A stretch of DNA of 64,000 nt from Novakomyces olei (taxonomy: Eukaryota): positions 558,001-622,000 of the forward strand of contig JADEYG010000002.1 of assembly GCA_016906335.1 (NCBI GenBank), read 5' to 3'. Numbering within the stretch: position 1 is the stretch's first letter; every line of letters begins with the position of its first letter. A model generated the notes under the pieces. That model saw only the letters and a list, made by a program, of their open reading frames with translations, was not told the DNA's origin and searched no databases. Positions 5,589-47,722 of this stretch are shown one piece after another. The translations under genes were made by a program, and so were the position numbers.

Positions 5589-8500
5589 ATGCTGCCCTTC
5601 TCCGGGGAGCGCAAGGAGCCGGCAAGTGGAGTTTGGGGGAATGGCAAAGTGGACACTGTTGGCCTGCAGGAGCAAGACGCGAGGGGGCATGGACATTTGC
5701 ACAGCCAAGGTATAGCGGACGAAATCTTGGAAGACGAAATCTTGGAAGACGAAGTTTTGGAAGACGAGATTTTAGAGGACGAGATTTTAGAGGACGAAAT
5801 CTTGGAAGACAAAGTCTTGGAAAAAGATGTATTGGAAAAATCCGTTCCGAGTCTGGAAGAGTTCATGTCCGACTACCGCAGCGGGCACATAAACAATGTG
5901 CCTGATATGTCGAGCAAAGTGGACACCAGTAGCGGTTGGGACGCGCCTTTTCCACGAAATATTGCTCAAGTCTCGCGGGCCGTCTGCGAGATGATCGGGT
6001 TTGACAGCTCGAATATTCTGAGTAATACAGCTGCCTTGGACGCTCTCGCCAACTCGGCTGAGCTCGCGGCAAATATAAGCGGATGCACTTTTGCCATGGT
6101 CACTCTGGTCGACGAAATGAATACTTACGTTTTGGCTACGCGATCGGTCGATCGTGATATTTTGCCCATTTCACATGTCGGCTGCTTTCCCAATGCTCAA
6201 AGCAACCTTATCTGCAGACACGTTTTGCTGACCACCAACTCTTCCCCGTAAGTACCGTCGTGCTGCTTTATTTCATTGCGGACTGTCCGTTTGTATAGCA
6301 CTCCTCTTGGGTTTGCGCTTTTTTTATTTACATCTACTTTTGATTGCCTGCTCAATCTATCAGCTTATGGCGCTCATAATTCATGGTTATTCATGGTTGC
6401 TTTTACGCGTATACTTTATCCATTTCACTGATGCCATACTAACCCACGTACAGGTTTATCGTGTCCAGTCTAAAGACAGATTGGAGGTTCAAGAATATTG
6501 TGAGTGCTTTACTCTATTTTCGTTTTCCTAACAAATTTCAGGGAGCCGTTAAATCTGGAAAGATCGATTTTTATGCGGGGTTTCCTTTAGTGAACAAGAC
6601 GGGACTCACGATCGGGTCGCTTTGTGTCTGTGACCAAAAGCCAAATGTCCCGCTGGACGAACGGTCACTGCGGAATCTTCGGTCTATCAGCAGCAACGTT
6701 GTCACATCCCTCTCTCTGCTCAGCAACAGCCTTATGCTGGAGAGGAAACGCAGGTACTTGAACCGGGTTTCTCTCTTCACCCGTATTTTTCTGGTAGACG
6801 ACAATGATTGTGATACGATGCCGTTTATTGGTGCTTCTGCCGGCAGCAGCGCCATGACTGGTATAGATACAAAAGGCCAACAAGATTACTTGACCGCTAT
6901 TGGAACTGGCGTGGAGTCTGTTGACGAAAAGGCCTTTACCGATGCAGACGGGGCCGACAGTCCGGCTGAGTTTAGCCCAGAAGCTGCTTTTAAATTGGGT
7001 AAATGGTTACGTGAAAACGTGGGGCAGGATGCGCCTGCATGGCTGGCTTGCTCTATGATCCGCGACATTATTCGCTGTGAGGGCGTTTATTATTTTAGTG
7101 TACACAGCGCAAGCCAGCAAAATGCACCGGCTGCTTCTGTTTCCTCGTCCTTTTCAACATTGTCACCTCCGCAATTCGAGTCACCGCCGGTCGCGGCGGA
7201 CAGTACCAGTGATCTGCTCAATTCGTTTCCCTTGAAAACAAACCCTAGGGTTAATAACCCTAATCACGTTTCTGGCTCGTCAACGGACACGGGGCCTGTG
7301 GATTCTGCGGTTGTGGACGGTGAAGCCGAAGGTGGCAGCGATGCAGAGGCATCTGATACCAAACGATGTGAGCTTATAGCTTACAGTATAATGGGGAATC
7401 GTGAACTAGCTGGCCTACGAAACAAGACAAGTGCAATGCCAGGTGCTCCTAAAAGCAATGCTCCTGCAGTATTACAGCAAAGTCTTGTTTGTGAGGGCGC
7501 TGAACTGGCGGGTATTATTGCTGCTGCTGTGAATGGTCATATATACAAAAGGCTGCCAGCAATTCTCGAGTCTGTTTTGCCCAGTGGGATCACGGAAATC
7601 GCCGTGGTTTCCATCATTGATCATATGAGAAGAGCGAGTGGTATCTTGGTGGCGTTTAACCCGCACGAGGCACCTCTTTCGCAGCCAACGCTGAGGATAA
7701 TGCTTTCTTTTGGAGAGCATATTGTGGCTCAGGATATAAGGCATCGTATAAAAATGGCGGACCAAGAAAAAAACAATTTTATTTCTAAAATCTCACACGA
7801 ACTACGTAGCCCGCTTTTCGGCATTTTGGCGAGTGCCGAATTGCTTGGAGAAACACCAGATCTATCTCAGCAGCAGCAGCAACTGCTTCATACTATTGAC
7901 CGGTGCGGAAATGGCCTTTTGGAAATAATAAACCATATTTTGGACGCTAAAAATATCGCAATTACCCTGGGCCAGGACGCTACTGGTAGAGGCGATACTG
8001 TGGCAGGCAAAGATGGCGACAGAATAGCCATAAACAGAGCGGAATCTAAAACGGAGGCAGCTACCTTTTCTTCCGGACCTGCATCTATTCCGCATGACGG
8101 CGAATCTGTAACGGAGGATCCTGGGACTGATTCCACTTGCCGTGCAACTAATCCTTCCTTTACTCCCGCGTCTTTCCCCGCAAAAGCTCCAGTCTATTAT
8201 GATGCGTTGGCTATCTGTGAAGAAGTAGTTGAAACACAGATAATGGGAGCCTCTGCCCATGCAGACTCTGCCCTGTTTGAGCATGATTTGACAACCTCAA
8301 TTTCGTCTCCGGCCTCTTCTTCACTGATTGTGGACGGGAGCATGGCTTTCTCTCATCCAGCAACATGCACAAAATCTGTGCCGTCTAGTAATACCACCCA
8401 TAGTTTTGCCAAAACTGCCGGGTATAATTCGGCGCTTCTTAACCCCGGTACTCCGGTTCAGCACCAGCATCGTGTGCACGATATCCCTCCTGTAACGGTG

Positions 8501-10441
8501 GCCTTTACTGCTGCGCCAAACGCTCATGTTGCTTGGTCAAATGGGAGCGGAGTGCCTGTGTCCTTTAGACGGATTCTGACAAATATTGTAGGCAATTCGC
8601 TAAAGTATACAAGACAGGGCCATATTCGCGTGACGTTGCAGTACAAGGCGAAGCGCAATTTTTTGGTTTTGCGGGTGCAGGACACGGGTAAAGGGATGTC
8701 TCGTGATTTTGTGGAGCGGAGGCTCTTTACTCCCTTCACTCAGGAGGACTCCTTCCAGCCTGGAGTCGGCCTGGGCATGTCTATGGTGAAACAGCTGGTG
8801 GACAGTTTGGCAGGCTATATCTCCATAGAGTCCAAAGTCAACTGTGGGACCTGTGTAACCGTTACACTGCCCATGCTGCCTTTGTGTAACGCAGGAATCG
8901 TTGTAGTAAAGGCTCCAGAGGCTGCTGCCCTGCGGGAAAAGTATGACCAGTTTAGGGGCTGCAGTGTGTACGTTCACTGTGAGCCGTGGACAACGAGCAG
9001 AGAGGGCAGTCGGAGTGCTGATTACAATAGCAATAAAGAGGCTTATAATACAGACGCTACAGACGCTACAGACCCTACAGACGCTACAGACGCTACAGAC
9101 GCTACAGACGCTAATAAAGGCCAAAAAAACACAGAGCTGTTTGAAGCAATGCAGGTCTACTGCCGGCAATGGATCCCAGACTGTCGGTTCTGTGAGGATC
9201 CTGAAGGCGCGGATATAATCCTGGTCCCACAGGACTCTGCCTTTGGAAGGTCCGTAGCCGTTGACAACGGAGGCAAGTTTGATGGGGCAAAGCACAGGGC
9301 CACTCTCGTCTTGTGCCGCAGCCAGATGAGTATTGCCAGCCTTGCTCTACTCCCTCACAAGGGGGTAGCCTTTGTTTCTGCTCCCTTTGGACCAATTAGT
9401 ATGCTACAGGGCCTTTTGAACTGCTGTTCAACGGGCAATACTCTGCTCGTAAGACGCGGATCTTCTTCCGTCTCTGTGCCGTCGGGGACGGCATTAAAAC
9501 TAGACGCCAATGCAAACGTATTAGGCCCAGAAAACCCTGACGGAGGTCAAGGCAGCATGGACACGAGTCCAAAAGGCAGAGCTGCTGCTGTGGTCGAGAG
9601 CAGATTGGACGGTCAGACAGAGTCGCAAAAAAGGAGCTCACAGTCCCGTCCTCGGCCAGAGCAGCTCAGCGGCACTTTTCCCGGCAGCCTTAGTAGCGCC
9701 TATCCATCTGGGCCAGAGGGAGATGGCCTACAGGACCGTCTGCCTCTGACCCAAGACTCGGCAGAGGCCGTCAGTCCTACAGCGAGCCGCTCTCTAAAGT
9801 TATCTGCTCTCGAAGCTCAGGACGAAGCCGTTGAGCCGGTCGTGACGACGGGAATATACAGCGAGAGCCCGAGTACAGCGGCTGAATTGACGGGCCGCCA
9901 GCAGAGTACGGGACTAAAAGGCTCTGGGTTCAGTTCAAATATTGCCCCTTTGATGGCAGCACAAGCAGCGAGGGCCAAACTGCCTTTTGGCTCTGATATA
10001 GTAAAACCAGTAAAACCTACAAAACCTGCAAACCCAGAAAAATCAGACTTGCCGGATGATACTCCTTTACGCATTTTGCTGGTGGATGATAATCTAATTA
10101 ATCTGCGTATTCTGCAGACGTTTGCCAGGAAAATGTCGCTTGATTTTGCTTGTGCAATGGACGGACAAATGGCCGTTCGCTGTGTCCAGGAGAACGCGAA
10201 TACGCCGTTCCAAGTTATCCTTATGGACATGCAGATGCCCGTCCTGGACGGGTGCGATGCTACCCGGCTTATACGGCAGTACGAGTCTGTGAGAGGACTG
10301 CCTAGATCTCGTGTAATTGCCCTCACTGGCCTCGCCAGCGACAGTGATAGACTGAGGTGCGAAAGGGCGGGTATGGACGGGTTCGTTACAAAGCCTGTCT
10401 CCCTTTCAAAGCTGCATTCTTTGATTCATGCCGAGATTTGA
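5589..10441 (+). CDS. Hybrid histidine kinase GAF-HisKA-HATPase-REC; introns 6248-6453 and 6500-6541
   Basis: Spliced GAF PFIVSSLKTDWRFKNIGAV..IDFYAGFPL..GLTIGSLCVCD; H-box ISHELRSPL; N-box NIVGNSLKY; G1 DTGKGM; G2 GVGLGM; receiver VDDN / MDMQMP / VTKP. Confidence 0.93.
5716..5835 (+). repeat. 15-bp coding tandem repeat encoding (EDEIL)-like units
   Basis: gacgaaatcttggaa-type units, about 7-8 degenerate copies. Confidence 0.9.
9049..9113 (+). repeat. 9-bp coding tandem repeat (acagacgct)n encoding (TDA)n
   Basis: About 7 copies visible inside the histidine kinase linker. Confidence 0.9.
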
Positions 10442-12147: not shown

Positions 12148-13532
12148 ATGCCTCCCATAAAAGCGCCCTGGCGCTATGTATATATAGCGAAAGCAGAGCG
12201 GCACAGTCCAATTGCACTGAGACTGGTTTTCACTATCGATACAGACTTGGGCGGTTCTCCTCTCGGTGACTCGAGTGCTGAAGAGTTTGACAGTGAATCG
12301 TTTGCTCCGTACGAAGCTCGGGGCAGCAAGGCTCTTGATCTTTCCAGCGCATACAAAAATGTTTGTTTATATTATGCATTTAATGATGACGCGTCTCGTG
12401 CATTGGCCTTCCGCAATATCGGGCCCGGTTGCTATGAAGCACAGATTCCTATAGCTGCGCGCGATCGTGCTCCGATACTGCACGTTTACGCTTCAAAAGA
12501 TTCGTATTTTAGATTAAAGGCGCCTTGTGTCGTTGCGGGACAGAGTGTACAGCTACAGTATGCGAATAAAAAGGCAGTAGTTCAACAGCGGTTTCGAAGG
12601 TTATTCATTAAAGCGCCTCTGCTTGTTTATGAGCCGAGCAATGCTGTCATTGGCGGACACATTTGGTAAGACCGAACATGAAGAAGTTTTAATTGTAAAA
12701 AAAATGAAAAATGAAAATTGGAAAATTGAAATAAAGAATTTGACAGGAATTTAAATATGGTTACTCTAGCTACGTGAGCTATTTTATCTTGTAAACTTGG
12801 ACAGTATATAAATTGGATAAAAAATTAAATGGGTTGAGTAACTAGCATGGATTCTGATTCTGGCTCTGGTTCTGGTTTTTGAATTTGAATTTGAATTTTA
12901 TTCTTTTCCAACAATTCTTTTCCAACAGTTTGCTAATGTATAGGGACGCGGGTCTCTTTGTTGCAACTGATTTGTCTCAACAAGGACTCATACACCACTA
13001 CCTCTCGCGAAAAGACGTACAAGAACAAACTGGTAAAGATATTGCGAATGGCCGAGTCTTAGAACTCGGCGCCGGCACGGGTCTCGCCGGGCTTGCGTGG
13101 GCTGCCGTCTATGCAAACAGTGTTGTTATTCTAAGCGATGAGGTGGTGATTGAGAGCATAGCAACAAATAAAACGAACAACGGTGGAATGCCTCTCGTTG
13201 TACAGTATACGTGGGGTGAGAAACTGCCCACGCAAATTCTGGGATGTTTACCGGATACAGTCATTTGCACAGACGGCATTTACAATGTAGACGCGCACGA
13301 GGTACTACGTGACTCAATCCGGCAATTGGTTTACGCGCGTCGACGCGCTTTGCGTGGGCGTGAGAAGCCTTTGACGCTAATTATGGCCCACAAACGACGT
13401 GGGGGTGAAGAAGCAAAGTTTTTCCTTCCCTGGGAGACACAGGCAGACAGCAGTGTGCGCCTTAGCTGCTGGACTCGCCAAGTAGCCCGTGGATGTATTC
13501 TCATAGACATTGCTCTTGCTTATACTGAATAA
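12148..13532 (+). CDS. SAM-dependent protein methyltransferase (Methyltransf_16/METTL21-like) with N-terminal extra domain; intron 12666-12943
   Basis: IGGHIW|DAG across the intron, VLELGAGTGLAG motif I, YTWG, CTDGIY (DxxY), AHKRR. Confidence 0.82.
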
Positions 13533-14820
13533 CGTCGCTCCGCAGCAAGTCTGGAGATGGACTGGGAGCTTCAATCTGGTTCAGTGCTTGGATAATAGTG
13601 TGATGCTCCGAATAATGTACCAATGAGCAAAGTGCGGTGTCATAAACATTGTAATATGTCGAGTATACTCGTTTGCAATACAGTAGTTTGTGAAATGTAT
13701 ACGTGGATTAGCATAGAAAGATAAAGATCGGACGCTTTGGAAAAGATGACGGTGGAACTATGTGAGACAAGCCAGAGTGAACAGATTACTGAGAGAATTG
13801 GCTTCACATAAAGGTATACACAATCTTGACTAAGGTTCGTGTTTTATGTCAAATGCAAGGGTTCGAATGTGAGGACTCTTTCAAACCTGCTACATAAAAA
13901 GTTCGCATGCCCTGATGGAAGAGTATTGAGCTTTTATTTAAGACTATTATGGAGCCAATTTCAAAGGTAGTACGATGCTTCTACTTCCAAGCGCCAGTCT
14001 GAGATCTCAACACCGTCTCAGACTTGCCCTTATCCCTTAAAAAGTTTTTATAATTATTGCATTGTGTCACGTTCACCGTGGAATTAAGTCTATACAGTCT
14101 TGTATACGCAAGTACGGCAAACCTATAGGGAATATTATATAGCTTTATACCGTGTGCAATCGTGGAGCACTATAATCAAAAGATCGATCCCCGTGTTTTT
14201 TATAATTTGCTGTGTAATTAAGTGTTAATAGCGTGTCAAACGTGTAAGCAATCAAAAGCTGCTTATCATAATAATAATTAATATGAAAAGTATATTTGGT
14301 GTTATGAGTCATAGCCGACGATTTATTTTCCCTTACTAATAATAGGTTTTTATTTATTGTGTGCAGTATTCAAAATTTTTTAAGTGTCTCGCAGCCGTTT
14401 GAAAAGCGACACTTTTCATCGGTTCAAGGTACAATTTAGCTCTTGTTTGGCAGCTTAAAGGCCCCGTGGAAAGTGCCTTTTTTGCCCAAGTCTGCGGCGT
14501 TTCGATTTAGCACCGCCCAATTCCTTCGCTTTTCCCAAGTGTTTGAGGCAAAGAGTCCTGCCCCGCTAATTCGTTTCCTTGATTCAAATTCGATCCTGAC
14601 CACGGGCTTTTGGTACTGTGGGCGACAGCAAGGAAGGGAAGCAGGAAAAAGAATCAAGACAGGACGCGATTACGCTATTCTGTCTATTTGTCTCGATCGC
14701 ATAAGCTTTGCTTAAAATTTTGCTCTCAAAGTGAAAGACAGCGACGCTCAAGTACTGGCGTTTTAATTGCTGTTTTTCTTCTCTTTCCCTACTGCAAAAC
14801 TTAAACATTTTCTTTGGACA

Positions 14821-14934
14821 ATTGGTCAGGCGCTGGGACCATTAATATCCAGACGCTCCTTCTGCATTACGGCGCCGGCAGCAACTAGCAGCTTCGCTCC
14901 CGTCGACTTTTATCCTCCTTTCCGTCCTCCCTAA
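14821..14934 (+). promoter_or_regulatory. Putative AUU-initiated regulatory uORF in the ODC leader, 37 aa ending DFYPPFRPP-stop
   Basis: acaATTg context (A at -3, G at +4); open frame to TAA 14932-14934; no ATG between 14307 and 15221. Confidence 0.72.
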
Positions 14935-15221
14935 CGACCCTCGAGGACTCATCTATTTGCTTTGCCGGCCCTTTAATTTTGAGGCTTTTGAATTTTAGGG
15001 GTTTTGTTCCGGGCCTTTTGGTTTCGCGTACATTCGCGTACACTCATATAATTTTGGCATTATTTCAATTTCACAATCCACAGCTCTACAAGTTCCTGCT
15101 GTGCTTTGCGTAATAGGCACAGCAAACCCCGAAAGCCGTTTCAGCTATAGGTCCTCTCTTCGCCTCAGTTGCGCAGCCTGCGTCCAGGTTTGCCTGTAAG
15201 AGTAGCCCAAAGCTGATCAGT

Positions 15222-16919
15222 ATGACAGCAATGACTAGGGTTACGACTACAGCTGGACCTTTTACCAATGCCAGCTCTATTCACAGGACAAAAGTCGCTC
15301 GAGGTGTCTATACGTCTTCGTCTAGTATGGCTGCTGTTGCTACTGCTTCTGCGGCAGCTGCCTCGAACAATCCGGAACCTGTTTATTATTCTGCTGGGGA
15401 TATTGTAACCGCTTCTACTGTATCGGCTGCCCCCAGCCTGACCACTTACCCCAGTACAATATCTAGTCCTCTGCGTCATCGCAAGGAAAAGCTGTGCAAT
15501 TTTGATCCGGAAGCCATGATTGCAGAAGTCATGCGTCGCCGCATTGCTCTTGTTGACAATACGGGTCAGGTCGACTCTGAAAGCTCGTTTTTCGTGGCAG
15601 ACTTGGGCCAAGTTTACAGGCAGCATATGCAATGGAAACGTCTTTTGCCCCGGGTTGAACCCTTTTATGCAGTTAAATGCAATCCTGACCCGTACGTCAT
15701 TCAGCTCTTGTCTGCACTAAACACGGGTTTCGATTGTGCCAGCCATGCTGAGATTGAACAGATCCTTCATGCTGGCATTGATCCCCATCGTATTATATAC
15801 GCAAACCCTTGCAAAGCAGTTTCCCATATTGCTTATGCTCGTACAATGGGCGTGGAAAAAATGACGTTTGATAACGCTGAAGAGATCTACAAGATCAAGC
15901 AGCATCACCCGGAAGCTCGACTCTATCTGCGTATTCTTACAGATGATTCTAATTCGCTCTGCCGCCTTGGTCTTAAATTTGGAGCCGATCTCAACGTTAC
16001 CGGTGAGCTTTTAGCCTTGGCTAAAAGCCTCAATCTGTGTGTGGAGGGAGTGAGTTTCCATGTTGGCTCTGGCTCTTACGATCCAAACGCCTTTGAAGAT
16101 GCAATCAAAAGAGCCCGATTTGTTTTCGACCAGGCCGAGTCTCTTGGATTACCCCCACTGAAAACTCTGGATATAGGTGGGGGGTTTAGTGGGGAGACGT
16201 TTGAGGCAGTAGCTCCACGAGTCCGTGATGCTATCGACGATAGTTTCCCGAGTACGGTTCGCGTTATCGCTGAGCCTGGCAGGTATTATGTAGCGGATGC
16301 TTTTACTCTGGCTACTCATGTTATTGCGCGCAGAACAGTGGCACCGTGCTTGGAACAAGGCGAGGCGTATCCACGGTACTTGTACTACTTGAACGACGGA
16401 GTGTATGGCAGTTTTAATTGTATCGTCTTTGATCACCAGCAGCCGCAGGCCCAAGTGCTCACCCACCAAGGCCGATTTGTTATGGAGACGGGGCCCGTGT
16501 ACAAAAATCCAATGGGAGAGACAAGTAATACTGCTGCAGTATTACATAGTGCAGGTGCAAGTAATCTTAACAACTACAGTACAAACGGCGACGATGCAGC
16601 AAACGCAAATAAAACTGCGCTTGCGGCAGCAATTGCGGGGGAACAAGTAGCCAGAGTCGATGAGGCGATAGAAACGGCGCAGCTTCATCCGCCGGGAAGC
16701 GGCTTCAAGTGCTCAATTTGGGGACCGACTTGTGATTCTGCCGATTGTATCGCAGCCGAGTATTCGCTCCCAGTGAGACTGGACGTGGGCGATTGGCTGT
16801 ATTTCCGTAATATGGGGGCCTATACGAGTGCGGCTGCTAGCAAATTTAACGGGTTCCCTCGCAGTCCAGTTCACTATGTCGTCAGTGAAGTAGGAGCGCT
16901 TGAGCTGTTTAACTTGTAG
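15222..16919 (+). CDS. spe1: Ornithine decarboxylase (intronless; alternative in-frame start at 15327)
   Basis: PFYAVKCN (PLP lysine), GFDCAS, IIYANPCK, SFHVGSG, DIGGGF, AEPGRY, DGVYGSFN, WGPTCD, MGAYT..FNGF. Confidence 0.96.
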   Translation: MTAMTRVTTTAGPFTNASSIHRTKVARGVYTSSSSMAAVATASAAAASNNPEPVYYSAGDIVTASTVSAAPSLTTYPSTISSPLRHRKEKLCNFDPEAMIAEVMRRRIALVDNTGQVDSESSFFVADLGQVYRQHMQWKRLLPRVEPFYAVKCNPDPYVIQLLSALNTGFDCASHAEIEQILHAGIDPHRIIYANPCKAVSHIAYARTMGVEKMTFDNAEEIYKIKQHHPEARLYLRILTDDSNSLCRLGLKFGADLNVTGELLALAKSLNLCVEGVSFHVGSGSYDPNAFEDAIKRARFVFDQAESLGLPPLKTLDIGGGFSGETFEAVAPRVRDAIDDSFPSTVRVIAEPGRYYVADAFTLATHVIARRTVAPCLEQGEAYPRYLYYLNDGVYGSFNCIVFDHQQPQAQVLTHQGRFVMETGPVYKNPMGETSNTAAVLHSAGASNLNNYSTNGDDAANANKTALAAAIAGEQVARVDEAIETAQLHPPGSGFKCSIWGPTCDSADCIAAEYSLPVRLDVGDWLYFRNMGAYTSAAASKFNGFPRSPVHYVVSEVGALELFNL

Positions 16920-41452: not shown

Positions 41453-44400
41453 ATGGTCGCCTTTGATGGGTAGGCAAAAGAGGCTGTTTTCTTTTGATTC
41501 ATTTCTTCATTTTTAAGCTATGGAACGGAGTTTGCTGATATGATTGTGCAGTTTACGGCGCAGGCATCCTCGCCGAGCGGCCTTTGAACGGTTGCTACGG
41601 TTACCGGATGGCATAAATATAATTTTATCCAAGTACTTGGATCTTGATACAAAGACAGCGGAAACTGTGAGTGTTATTGGAATTATTGATCAGCATAAGA
41701 GAGGGGAAAAGACTCAGATGAAACGAACTAACCTTATCACAGACGGAATTGAACTTGGAATGTTTACTGGCAATTGAGGCACATGCAGACGCGCTGGCGG
41801 CGTCTCCATTGGCCGACTCAATACTGCAATCAGAAAGACGTATACTCTTGCAGTCTTTAAGTGCAGATGGACTTGAAGGTAAGGGTGATATGACTAAAAG
41901 AGACGATTGTTTTGATTTGGGCAAAACGAATAGTGCTTCAATGATGAATCGATACAAATGAATACATGTGTTTCGCTTTAATTCGGGTTGCTAATTCGCT
42001 ACTAGAGACGAGTCCTGTAATACAGTTTACGCTAGCCAATACTATTCAGTCTACTTTTGTGAAAATGACCACGCGCAACGAAATGCTGGTCCCGAATTCA
42101 AGCCGCTTTATTTCCTCATTTTTCCGTCATTGTGAGGCTTTATCAAAGTCCGCCTTTGATGGTAAGAACGAACGAGTTGAGCTGGGGTTTCTCGAATGCC
42201 TTAATGGCCTGCTTCAGCGTGATATTGCCTCTAATTTAAGCTTCCTATATGGACCGTATTTGCTTAGCTATATTCGGTCCTTGAACAATATTTTGCGAAA
42301 CATCAACAAGCACGATAGTTTACAAAGCAATGCAGATGGTAATTCGGTAGTTTCCTCGGCTGGTGGTGGCGCCGAAGGCGTCCAAAACGAGGATACAAGG
42401 AGTCTTTTGCTCACTGTTCAGAGCCATATATTAAGCTTTATGAATACCTGTATAGTCACTTTTATAACACAAAAGTCACCACAACAGGATTGGCTTGAAC
42501 TTGTACTGGATCGCAAAGTTGAACTTCACAGTTTCCCTCTTGAAGATTCTGTGCAACTTCAAAGAACGCTCGAATCGTTGCAGCTACATTCGCAGTACGA
42601 TGAAGCCCAGTCTATTATTGTCGCCCTTTTTCTCGGAATTCTTTCGGGCGAACAAACCAAGACACGGAAACTGTTGGATTTCTTTGGGAAACAACTAAAT
42701 CATTTTTTGCAGGGCGAAACAGACGTGATTGAACTTATTCTTAATGGCTTGAGCTTTATAGCTGCCCGATCAATCGAAAACGAGCAACAGGCTATTATCT
42801 TAATCCGCAGAATCATCGATACATCTGTAGCCTCGGACGAAAATAAGGTGAACAGATTAGCTGTGCGTGGTGCTTCATGCTTATGTGATCTTTTTGCAAA
42901 TTATTCGTCTGATTCAATAATGAGTATTATATTTCTGTATTTAAAGAACATTGGACCGAGCAATTTGTTATTAAATGATTCTGAAAGCCTTTTGGAGGAC
43001 TCCATGAATTTGAACGAATCCAAATCAGAAATGGACTCCTCCGAATTAAGATCGGAAAAGCAGCAAAAAATACTAAACTCTCTCGACGTTTTATTGACGA
43101 TTGCTCTCAAACTGGACGACGATAAGATTTACGGGATGATTATCTCTGTTCTTGTGCAAAACACGGGTAAAAGGAACCACGAAATTGAATCTAAGTTCCT
43201 ATATACAATCTCTCAGTTAGCCCCCAGAGCCAATGAAAGTCAACTGTTTGAGCTGATTAAATACCTTGAATCGCAATTTGCCCTTTCGTGGGCAGACAAT
43301 GCTGGTGACACGGAAGTTATGCGTGGACAGCAAGATTGCTACACGACAATTTGCGATTTAATTGAGCCTGATTCGTTCCAAGAGAGCGAAATATTAAACA
43401 GCCTTTTGCGCAATATTATCAGTGTCAATTCCTCGTCTGACGAGGGAGGCATTAGTAGCAACATCCGTCATAACGATCGCCGCAAGCTGCCCCCTGCTAT
43501 GTCATCGGAGAGCAGTATTCTGGATCGTCTTCTTGTCAATTTGATTCCTTTAGGCCAATTGCTCAGTCGAAGGCAGAAGAACGTCTCTTCCGAAAATATT
43601 GACCTGGTAAACTTGTTCCGGAACGCTTGGCTGACGGTTGTTGTTAATGGTGGATTTTTTGGATCGTCTTTTTCGCAGAGAAACGCTGCGACGCTACGTA
43701 AAATTGCTCACAGATGTCCACCGCTGATATTGGAAAATGTTACCAATGACTTTGAGAGTGATCTAGAGCTAAACACGATCCTGCGAAGAAAGCATCATAA
43801 TGAGGAAAAATTAAAAATAATTAGCAAACTTTGTGATACTGTGCCGAGTATTGCACAAAGCACTCGTGGTCTCGGGTACGCTGAAGCAGTTTTCCTCTCT
43901 GCAGTTGCCCTTGTTGAAAACTGCCGGGCTCAAGAGTTTCAGTGCCAGGGCATTCTGGTTTATTTCCAGCAGCTGAGTATCCGATCAAGTAGAATGGCAG
44001 AGCCTCTTTCTGCTCTAGCTCTTTATAATGCGGCCACGTTTGCTAATGTTGTACGCAGCCAGGACAGTTTTGAGAGGAACCGTGATCGAATTCTGAGCAA
44101 TTTGAGCAGTCTCGTAACGTTTTGTGCAAACAGGGTGGAAAGGGTTAATCAATTGGCTGTAGAAATGGTTGATTCAATGGTGCAGATAACGCCTTCGCTT
44201 CTTTGCTCTACAACTACTGCTTTCACATTACTTGAGTGTTTGAATTTGCTATGGAGAGCTGCCCGAGAACGGGAAACTAACCAGTTTTCCCCATCGTCGA
44301 CTTTTTCCAGTGACAGAATGGAGCTGGAGATATCCGTACCCAGCATCTTTGACCGCAGGGATTCCATGCTGATTTCGATGTATAAGAATTCAAGAGATTG

Positions 44401-47400
44401 GCTAATAAGTGCGGCTAAAGCGGCGCCGGATGCTCTTAGCGGCGTGCTGCAAAGCTACTTGAGTGGAGGCGGAGACGGTGCAAACAATTTTAATAATAAC
44501 GGGGTCGCCATTGGCCAAACTTTGGCGCTGGAAATCGGGAAAATGATCCCGTTTACGGAACCCACGTTTGCCGAGCTCAGTATACGGGATATTAGGGCAG
44601 ATGCTACTTTTGGCTTTTTGAGTGACTTTTCTACAAGGCAGCTGTACCGTGGGATAATGGATTTTAGCGACTTTACAGACATTACAGAGCCGATTGAAAA
44701 TGGCAGCCAATATTCTCCTGCTTTGCCAAATACGTTAATGCCAGACGGTCTGTCAGGAGACATGAGGCGGCCCACAGAAAAAGCTCAAGAGTTTGTGGAT
44801 AAAATATTGAAGGATTTAAAAGTTACCGAGTCGCGTATTGAAGCGGGAGAAATTCCCAATACAAAATCATTGCGAGAGCTTCTTCGTCGGAGTGCGGGTC
44901 TACTGTTTTACAGAACAGATATGGCGAAGCTGATAGTGAAGAGTATCGTTGGTATCCCCTTTTCCATGTTTGATGAACCCTCCATCCGGCTGGGAACGAC
45001 ACTTTGGACGTGGATAATGAGCGAGCTACCCCAGCTTCAGGCTTTAGTCATCTGTGAAATATCGAGTAACTGGAGGTCTACTATTGCAAACGGAATAGGG
45101 TTTTTCTCTGATAGATCGAGTGAATCGCTACAGGATCCGTTTGCCCTTCGGATGGAGTACGCTCCGTCCAACAAGGCGCTAAACAAGCAACAAGGTGAGG
45201 CCATTAAATCGAGTATTATGCCTCATGTAATGATCTTGCACGTCCTTAAAGGTCACTATCAAGTATTTGAAAAAATACTGCCGCGTACGCGAAATGTCTT
45301 TGAATCCCTCATTGTCCGTAGTCTAAGAGCGATGGCATCTAAACGAGCATGTGTTCATCCATTAGCGCGCTGTCTCTATTTCAAACTGCTTTGCTTTGCC
45401 ACTGAAGTATGGTCGAGTCTGAGCAGCCACCAAAGCTGGAGGAGGCCCTTTTTCGCTCTAATTATTCGTGCAGGGATTGCCTGGTTTCACCCGACAGGAT
45501 CGGGACGGCCGGGTTGGCCTTTTGGGTCGGATTCACTGCAGGTTGAGGAGGAAATCGAGTTAATATCTGAGTTGTTGAGCTTTTTCTTGCAGTACCGGGC
45601 CGCCTCTGAGGCAATTTCTCAGGAACAAGATGCACTGCTATGGCTGCTGAGGGACGAAAGGTACAGGCTGCGCTGCTGGCTGGCTCCAGAATCTGCGGCC
45701 GTCGCTGCCCGGCAAAGTGAGGGCGATAGACCGTCGCTTTCCGGGGCAGATATAGTAGATTTTATACGTTTGACGTGGCACATTGACGCAGCAATTTCGT
45801 TCAATATATATAACCGTCGGCACCCGTCTCCGGCCAACAGGGCGGTACTCCTTGAACTGATCCTCGCTTTCCCTGAAAAGTGCCTCCATATAGCTGAAGC
45901 TGCTTCTTTTCTGCTCACTCAAGCAGACGACAGTGGTAATACTGCTATGGCGAAAAGGCTTCTTTTACTATGGGAACCAGTTGTTCCAGTGACGGCAATA
46001 AACTTGTTTCTCCCGTCGTTTGGACAGGATCCGTGCGTTTTGCAGTACGCAATGCGGTCACTGGAGCATTTCCCAGTTGACGTCACTTTTTTCTATGTGC
46101 CGCAGGTCGTTCAAGCGCTGCGGTACGATAAACTTGGGTACGTTGAACGCTTCATCGTGGAGACGGCCAAGATATCACAGCTGTTTGCGCATCAAATAAT
46201 CTGGAACATGAAGGCCAACGAGTACAAGGATGAAGATGGTCGAGATCCAGATGCGATTAAGCCCACGCTTGATGCCGTAATGAAAATGATGTTTGCCTCC
46301 TTTTCGCAGGCGGATACTGCCTTTTACCATAGGGAGTTCACTTTTTTCAGTGCCGTTACTTCCATCAGTGGGAAGCTTAAGCCCTTTATTCGCAAAACAA
46401 AACCGGAAAAAAAGGCTAAAATTGACGAGGAAATGAAACGGATCCAACTTGATCGCGGGGTTTACCTGCCGAGTAACCCTGACGGAGTTGTTGTTGGTAT
46501 TGATAGAAAATCGGGCAAGCCTTTACAGAGCCACGCTAAGGCTCCGTTTATGGCCACGTTTATAATACAGAAAAAACAGCAAATTGTGCCTTCTGATGAG
46601 AGCAGACGGCAGATTGAAAAAATTAAGCACCAAAGGCAGCGGTCAGGGCTGCATTCAAGAGCAAATGGATCTCGCTCTGGAATTGACGAGGCGGATGAGG
46701 ATGAGTGGAGTGTAGATCAGGAGTATAAGGAGCATAAACACTGTGAAAATCCCAAAAAAATGGACCAAACTTTTGGTAAAAAAGACGGCAGTACTACCGA
46801 GCATAAGCCTAACAAAGAATCAGCAAATACCGTCCAGCCTTACGACATAAATGGACAAAAATCGGCTTCAAAGCAGCCGGCAGACCAGCTGCAATCGCCA
46901 CCAGCCTCAAACTCGGCTCTGGACAGTCAAACGGTAGACATTCGTCAGTCGGCCATCTTCAAGGTCGGAGACGACTGCCGACAGGACGTGCTGGCTTTAC
47001 AGTTAATTTCAGTATTTAGAAATATATTCAATAGTGTCGGGCTCGACGTTTATGTGTTTCCCTACCGTGTCGTGGCCACAGCACCTGGCTGTGGCGTGAT
47101 TGACGTGCTACCCAATAGTATCTCTCGAGATATGCTCGGCCGTGAAGCTGTCAATGGTCTTTATGACTATTTTATCACAAAGTTTGGCGACGAGGACTCT
47201 GAAGTCTTTCAAAAAGCACGCGCTGAATTTGTGCAGAGTATGGCAGCCTATTCAATAATCACCTTTTTGCTACAGTTCAAGGACAGGCATAACGGAAACC
47301 TTATGATTGATGGAGAAGGCCATATTCTCCATATCGATTTCGGGTTTTGCTTCGATATTGCCCCGGGTGGCGTCACGTTTGAAGCCTCGCCTTTTAAATT

Positions 47401-47722
47401 GAGCCCGGAAATGGTTAGGGTTATGGGTGGACCACAGCACCAATGTTTCAGACAGTTTAGAACTCTGTGCATTAAGGCCTTTTTGGCCAGTCGGCCGTAT
47501 GCTGATCAAATATGTCAAATGGTCACGGTTATGCTGGATTCTGGACTGCCCTGTTTCAAGGGAATGACGACGATTGCAAACCTGCAAAAACGGTTTAATC
47601 TCAATGCCTCTGAGCATGAAGCCATCGCCTATGTTCAGCGTCTTATTGATTCCGCTTACGAGAACAAAATGACGCTTTTGTATGATCAGTACCAAAAATT
47701 GACGAACGGTATTCCGTATTAG
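41453..47722 (+). CDS. stt4: Phosphatidylinositol 4-kinase Stt4 (PI4KIII alpha); three 5' introns
   Basis: FRNAW, FFYVPQVVQALRYD, FAHQIIWNM, GVYLPSNP, LQSHAKAPF, AIFKVGDDCRQDVLALQ, KDRHNGN, HIDFG, NGIPY C-terminus; first exons MVAFDG|LRRRHPRRAAFERL reconstructed. Confidence 0.96.

Follow-up and report, generated by a model that had tools for sequence, protein, structure and literature searches.

Upstream frames known as uCCs (upstream conserved coding regions) have been reported in the mRNA leaders of ODC homologues from animals, Pezizomycotina, Basidiomycota and Zygomycota, and their origins in these separate groups were judged to be probably independent (PMC2811004). They range from 22 to about 100 codons; most have a conserved non-AUG start, mainly AUU, in a good context, and almost all encode a pair of adjacent prolines near the C-terminus (PMC2811004). 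As of 2009 experimental proof was confined to AZIN1, the Neurospora ODC leader being supported by indirect evidence, and Taphrinomycotina are not among the groups named in the sections of this review that deal with uCCs (PMC2811004). The mechanism published for AZIN1 combines leaky scanning with polyamine- and eIF5A-dependent stalling and ribosome queuing (PMC9788402, PMC11550727, PMC2811004). In the later model, polyamines impair the eIF5A-assisted synthesis of a PPW motif, and the stalled ribosome queues scanning ribosomes so that more of them initiate at the AUU; the HOL1 uORF shows a related termination stall at PS-stop (PMC9788402, PMC11550727).

Here we compare with these systems an ODC gene, and the DNA upstream of it, in a 64-kb stretch of fungal DNA (the window; all coordinates are positions in it). 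A full-text literature search, with fungal alignments in primary papers outside its range, brought up no uCC described for an ODC of Taphrinomycotina.

The ODC gene and the lineage of its host

The ornithine decarboxylase ORF lies on the + strand at 15222-16919 and encodes 565 aa, with matches to PF02784 (E 2.4e-75) and PF00278 (E 1.9e-25). Its named relatives are fungal ODCs, the best of them being that of Saitoella coloradoensis (59%). The protein is long, 565 aa against 400-480 aa in most of its matches. Homology begins near residue 93-120, and matches to the C-terminal domain fall into two stretches; this suggests an N-terminal extension some 100 residues long as well as an insertion at about residues 440-490. 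The gene 5' of the ODC leader is a lysine-methyltransferase-like ORF on the same strand (12936-13532). Other genes of the window encode an intron-less 1235-aa hybrid histidine kinase with HisKA, HATPase_c and receiver domains (6734-10441, + strand), a PI4-kinase (41966-47722), an M16C peptidase, a P450, a P-type ATPase and a CBF/Mak21-family protein.

To which lineage does the host belong? A 27-row ODC tree puts the window ODC outside the clade formed by Saccharomycotina and Pezizomycotina (support 100/99), as a long branch among the Taphrinomycotina. Its grouping with Schizosaccharomyces has weak support (55/32) and is possibly a long-branch artefact. The catalytic region of the PI4-kinase is most similar to those of Saitoella (70%), Schizosaccharomyces and Taphrina. 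The first-pass annotation had spoken of a fission-yeast-like lineage; this is right insofar as ODC and PI4-kinase both place the host with or near the Taphrinomycotina, but the host is not close to Schizosaccharomyces, since its ODC is 57% identical to that of S. osmophilus. Judged from these proteins, the host branches deeply among the ascomycetes, near Taphrinomycotina, and the databases used contain no close relative.

An upstream frame with a putative non-AUG start and a Pro-Pro-stop end

Between 14307 and the ODC start at 15222 the + strand is free of ATG, and these 915 nt (14307-15221) most likely form the 5' leader of the ODC mRNA, which would be long and without AUG. Within this stretch an ATT at 14821-14823, a putative non-AUG start with A at -3 and G at +4 (acaATTg), opens a frame of 37 codons, IGQALGPLISRRSFCITAPAATSSFAPVDFYPPFRPP, that is closed by TAA at 14932-14934. 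Relative to ODC it is in frame +1, and 287 nt (14935-15221) lie between its stop and the ODC ATG; from stop to stop it extends over 55 codons (14767-14934). The first-pass annotation had described the absence of ATG, the ideal context of the ATT, the 37-codon frame ending Pro-Pro-TAA at 14934, and its position 287 nt upstream of ODC in another reading frame; letters, translation and coordinates all proved correct.

The 23 leader frames of at least 10 codons include several that are longer than 37 codons, with 91, 74, 73 and 66 codons open in the longest, so what marks the frame at 14821-14934 is not its length but its start context and its end. As to the start, the ATT at 14821 is the only one of 29 leader ATTs in an optimal context (purine at -3, G at +4). 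The leader holds 139 near-cognate codons, 14 of them in a strong context, and three of these 14 fall in this one frame: the ATT, a CTG at 14833-14835 (gcgCTGg) and an ACG at 14869-14871 (attACGg), the last two being possible second and third entries. By position about 0.6 would be expected there (Poisson P ~0.02, hand calculation).

As to the end, the C-terminus reads Tyr-Pro-Pro-Phe-Arg-Pro-Pro-stop (14911-14934), a candidate stall site that holds two of the three Pro-Pro dipeptides found in the leader's three-frame translation. The prolines are encoded by an 18-nt pyrimidine-rich tract, CCTCCTTTCCGTCCTCCC. RNA folding predicts that this proline-stop end is unpaired. Around the start and across the frame the predicted folds are no more stable than those of shuffled sequence (z +0.8 and +1.1), and folding predicts no hairpin at the classical distance 3' of the ATT. 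A +1 shift at CCC-TAA was considered and discarded, the +1 frame stopping at 14998 and never joining ODC.

How does this frame compare with those already described? Three of the five traits listed for uCCs are present in the sequence, the other two being a peptide conserved among orthologues, above all towards its C-terminus, which is the defining one, and a repression of the main ORF that is stronger at high polyamine and depends on the start codon and the C-terminal peptide. The frame lies upstream of a bona fide ODC ORF in an ATG-free stretch, and would be in the 5' leader if that stretch is transcribed; it has a non-AUG start of the commonest kind, AUU, in good Kozak context; and it has two adjacent prolines near its C-terminus. 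With the vertebrate AZIN1 uCC it shares an ODC-family leader and an AUU in good context (PMC2811004), as well as adjacent prolines followed by an aromatic residue near the C-terminus. It differs in motif: AZIN1 has PPW and the animal uCC ends in Pro-Ser (PMC2811004), whereas the window frame has YPPF and then RPP-stop, so neither PPW nor a Pro-Ser C-terminus is found in it. PPF with Pro-Pro-stop may nevertheless act as the AZIN1-type motif does, though it is another motif. The AZIN1 uCC is, moreover, conserved and experimentally tested, whereas the window frame is known from sequence alone.

The ODC uCCs of Pezizomycotina, such as that of Neurospora crassa spe-1, are likewise on a fungal ODC and have a non-AUG start and adjacent C-terminal prolines (PMC2811004). 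By their published description, the only basis of this comparison, they have about 100 codons against 37 here (55 from stop to stop), and the window ODC stands outside the clade of Saccharomycotina and Pezizomycotina. The N. crassa ODC mRNA also has a long AUG-free leader. The ODC uCCs of Zygomycota can, like the window frame, be short, with as few as 22 codons (PMC2811004). Finally, the HOL1 uORF of S. cerevisiae and the small uORF of plant AdoMetDC resemble it in their proline C-terminus, at which a polyamine-dependent failure of eIF5A-aided termination leads to queuing and repression (PMC11550727, PMC2811004); these, however, belong to other genes and end in Pro-Ser-stop, while the window frame ends in Pro-Pro-stop and lies on ODC itself.

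Scanning metagenomes with the ODC protein gave 69 pattern matches and 31 ODC loci, all of them distant (none above 56% identity), and 25 of the 31 carry some upstream sequence. In two of these 25, L002 and L025, a frame with PPW stops 43-45 nt short of the ODC AUG (L002, 188-283; L025, 57-221), and the available upstream sequence is free of ATG over at least 326 nt and at least 266 nt, respectively. The L002 ODC is nearest to Mortierellomycota (58%). Both frames have the published animal motif, are probably members of the published uCC class and serve as a positive control of the approach. The L002 frame, of 31 codons, contains ...APDPPWF..., loosely like ...APVDFYPPF... in the window frame, a likeness too short to test; it ends 43 nt before the ODC AUG and seven residues past its PP, whereas the window frame stops directly after PP and 287 nt upstream. 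A filter for Pro-Pro beside an aromatic residue passed eight of the 456 upstream frames of the metagenome loci. One of the eight, in L027, reads ...DAFYPPIP-stop and overlaps the ODC start of that locus; it shares FYPP with the window frame, a likeness that is intriguing but again too short to test.

Three Mucoromycota-like ODC contigs (L001, L003 and L004) have in common a conserved upstream frame that contains AUG, reads ...LPFMFFQ.TVQLSFESLKNRYSK.KD.NVR-stop and ends just 5' of the ODC start. It has no Pro-Pro and so represents a different kind of conserved ODC uORF.

The 55-residue stop-to-stop frame of the window was also searched exhaustively against 1.84 billion representative proteins. 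The single match (E 1.3e-5), a 494-aa tandem-repeat protein aligned to residues 27-47, was judged spurious. Upstream frames are rarely annotated, so a nearly empty search of this kind is weak evidence against the frame.

Could a frame with these features arise by accident? Pro-Pro-stop ends five of the 3245 stop-to-stop frames of at least 10 codons in the window (both strands), and one of the 23 in the leader. In 4000 dinucleotide shuffles of the leader we scored the fraction with at least one qualifying frame. A PP-stop frame occurred in 9.9% of them, PP-stop with a strong-context near-cognate 15-120 codons upstream in 2.0%, PP-stop with a strong-context ATT in 0.22%, and PP-stop with a second PP within the preceding six residues in 0.18%. 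Looser definitions, in which a strong near-cognate is combined with PP anywhere in the last 4 or the last 10 residues, gave 5.9% and 14%. The feature was picked after the sequence had been read, and the honest chance range therefore runs from 0.2% to 14%. The rarity of the start/PP-stop combination is suggestive, not conclusive.

It is a serious alternative, to which we give a substantial though clearly minor share of the probability, that the leader is real and AUG-free but the frame in it is a chance one, any control of ODC synthesis being exerted by the length of the leader, by structure close to the AUG or at the level of transcription. The prolines would then be an accident of a pyrimidine tract lying beside a TAA, since such a tract yields Pro-Pro in one of three frames without selection, and the loose versions of the traits do arise in 6-14% of shuffled leaders. 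The codon usage of the frame, scored with ten long ORFs of the window as reference, is not coding-like (-0.04 against an in-frame mean of +0.23; rank 158 of 803 leader windows). Several other frames of the leader are longer, as noted above, and PPF and PP-stop are unlike the experimentally proven PPW and PS-stop. Another route to repression may also exist, in that the fold predicted for the last 142 nt before the ODC AUG (15080-15221) is more stable than in shuffles (-42.8 kcal/mol, z -1.98; matched by 5 of 200). What speaks against an accident is that the strict combinations occur in only 0.2-2% of shuffles and PP-stop in so few frames of the window, that the sole optimal-context ATT and two more strong near-cognates all enter the same frame, and that the ODC gene family, with its published uCCs, gives a high prior for such a device at the window ODC (PMC2811004). 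Were the frame a chance one, the finding would come down to an ODC leader that is long and AUG-free, nothing unusual in this gene family.

The probable leader and its transcript

The uCC-type reading presupposes that the ATT is transcribed, and here the distribution of ATG is informative. The last ATG before the leader is at 14304-14306, and the start-to-start distance from it to the ODC ATG, 918 nt, is the longest ATG gap on either strand of the window; the runners-up are 618 nt (+ strand) and 620 nt (- strand). At 11 other ORF starts in the window the ATG-free distance upstream is 1-422 nt, several of the first ATGs being possibly false starts. Local base composition predicts about 13.5 ATGs in the leader and none is seen. 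Dinucleotide-preserving shuffles of the 915 nt contain 7.6 ATGs on average (sd 2.3), and not one of 5000 was free of ATG. The reverse-complement word, CAT, occurs 10 times in the leader, so the depletion is strand-specific.

The depletion extends to the DNA 5' of the frame: by itself, the 514-nt segment before the ATT (14307-14820) is ATG-free in 0.6% of 3000 shuffles, with CAT present four times. A depletion this strong and this strand-specific favours a place for the ATT inside a scanned leader over one in promoter DNA. Further upstream, 15 ATGs are packed into 13557-13975, after which only those at 14283 and 14304 precede 15222. GC content is 26% in an AT-rich block at 14200-14350 and climbs to 48-53% past 14400. 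We infer that this block holds the promoter, as a putative TATA region, and that the transcript starts at about 14300-14400.

A transcript start 3' of the frame is unlikely. In that case the tract at 14908-14931 would be a promoter-proximal CT element and the frame would never be part of the mRNA. CT elements precede start sites in filamentous fungi, and the tract is indeed pyrimidine-rich. A short leader would also be unremarkable in itself, the 287 nt past the frame (14935-15221) being ATG-free in 5.4% of shuffles. Such a start would, however, leave the ATG depletion of 14307-14934 as a property of untranscribed promoter DNA, for which it is hard to explain: that region is ATG-free in 0.2% of 3000 shuffles, as its 5' part alone is in the 0.6% given above, while CAT is normal in both (six and four occurrences). 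The AT-rich, TATA-like block, moreover, is at 14200-14350 and not near 14900.

That the frame is spliced out as part of a 5'-UTR intron, or that it comes from a small gene of its own or a non-coding transcript, is very improbable: a branch-point-like CTAAC overlaps the stop codon (14931-14935), and TACTAAT followed by AATAG is found at about 14333-14346 with GTAAGC upstream at 14244, but a scan for splice signals shows no GTRNGY-type 5' splice site in 14367-15195 and no YAG within 30 nt past the CTAAC at 14931, so that no intron removing 14821-14934 is predicted, and searches for genes or RNAs gave no Pfam family for four leader ORFs on both strands (among them a 74-aa minus-strand ORF at 14584-14808) and no Rfam match over 13500-15400 at E up to 1. 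The 74-aa ORF is one of only two minus-strand ORFs of at least 60 codons across the leader; the other, at 15165-15626, is antisense to the ODC coding sequence.

Some further features of the region may be recorded. The ATGs at 14283 and 14304 share one frame, an 18-codon ORF, MKSIFGVMSHSRRFIFPY-stop, at 14283-14339 (+ strand). A transcript start 5' of 14283 would make it a conventional AUG uORF preceding the proline-stop frame; many leaders of ODC homologues are noted to carry conventional AUG uORFs (PMC2811004). Between the upstream frame and ODC, a 10-mer, TTCGCGTACA, is perfectly duplicated in tandem at 15023-15042 (+ strand), and a 10-bp hairpin (about 15097-15125) is part of the fold predicted for 15080-15221. 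At 13989-14031 (+ strand), between the methyltransferase-like gene and the AT-rich block, there is an inverted repeat whose 16-nt arms are 88% complementary and flank an 11-nt loop. A 13-nt complementarity between 14904-14916 and 15285-15297 was set aside as being at chance level (about 0.5 such pairs are expected per 1.35 kb, by hand calculation).

A proposed polyamine switch and its implications

Weighing these points, we regard it as the likeliest reading, with a chance of about even, that the frame at 14821-14934 is a working regulatory upstream frame of the uCC type, that is, a polyamine sensor. Its anatomy and its rarity against shuffles are direct observations; its transcription, its translation, and the stalling and polyamine dependence of its ribosomes are what the AZIN1, HOL1 and Neurospora precedents would lead one to expect. 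The first-pass annotation had proposed a polyamine switch of this kind. The proposal is partly supported: the anatomy fits the uCC traits in a combination that, strictly defined, is rare in shuffles. PPW and Pro-Ser, the exact AZIN1 motif, are absent.

If the frame works as a uCC, its operation can be pictured as follows. At low polyamine levels most scanning 43S complexes would bypass the weak starts, AUU 14821, CUG 14833 and ACG 14869, to begin translation at the ODC AUG. Those few ribosomes entering the frame would clear Pro-Pro-Phe and, aided by eIF5A, terminate after Pro-Pro. At high polyamine levels eIF5A function would be impaired, and ribosomes would pause at YPPF (codons 31-34), at RPP-stop (codons 35-37), or at both. 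Scanning complexes would then be held up behind the paused ribosomes. The resulting queue, 96-108 nt or some three to four ribosome lengths, would keep a scanning complex near the AUU, where initiation would become more frequent, and less ODC would be made.

A bolder form of this reading, which we put forward tentatively and at somewhat less than even confidence, is that the frame represents a fifth, independently arisen uCC-type sensor, carried by the ODC mRNA of a deep-branching, Taphrinomycotina-like ascomycete and compact in form, in which AUU, CUG and ACG funnel ribosomes into one frame with two stall sites in seven codons. If this is true, elongation and termination would both be polyamine checkpoints, and convergent evolution would have arrived at this device once more. 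The frame, whose Pro-Pro abuts the stop, would also offer a short natural sequence on which stalls in elongation and in termination could be told apart when eIF5A is limiting. Non-AUG proline-stall frames on ODC mRNAs would extend to a fungal lineage absent from the groups that the 2009 review names in its treatment of uCCs (PMC2811004), and the case that the proline-stall solution to polyamine feedback evolves repeatedly would be the stronger for it.
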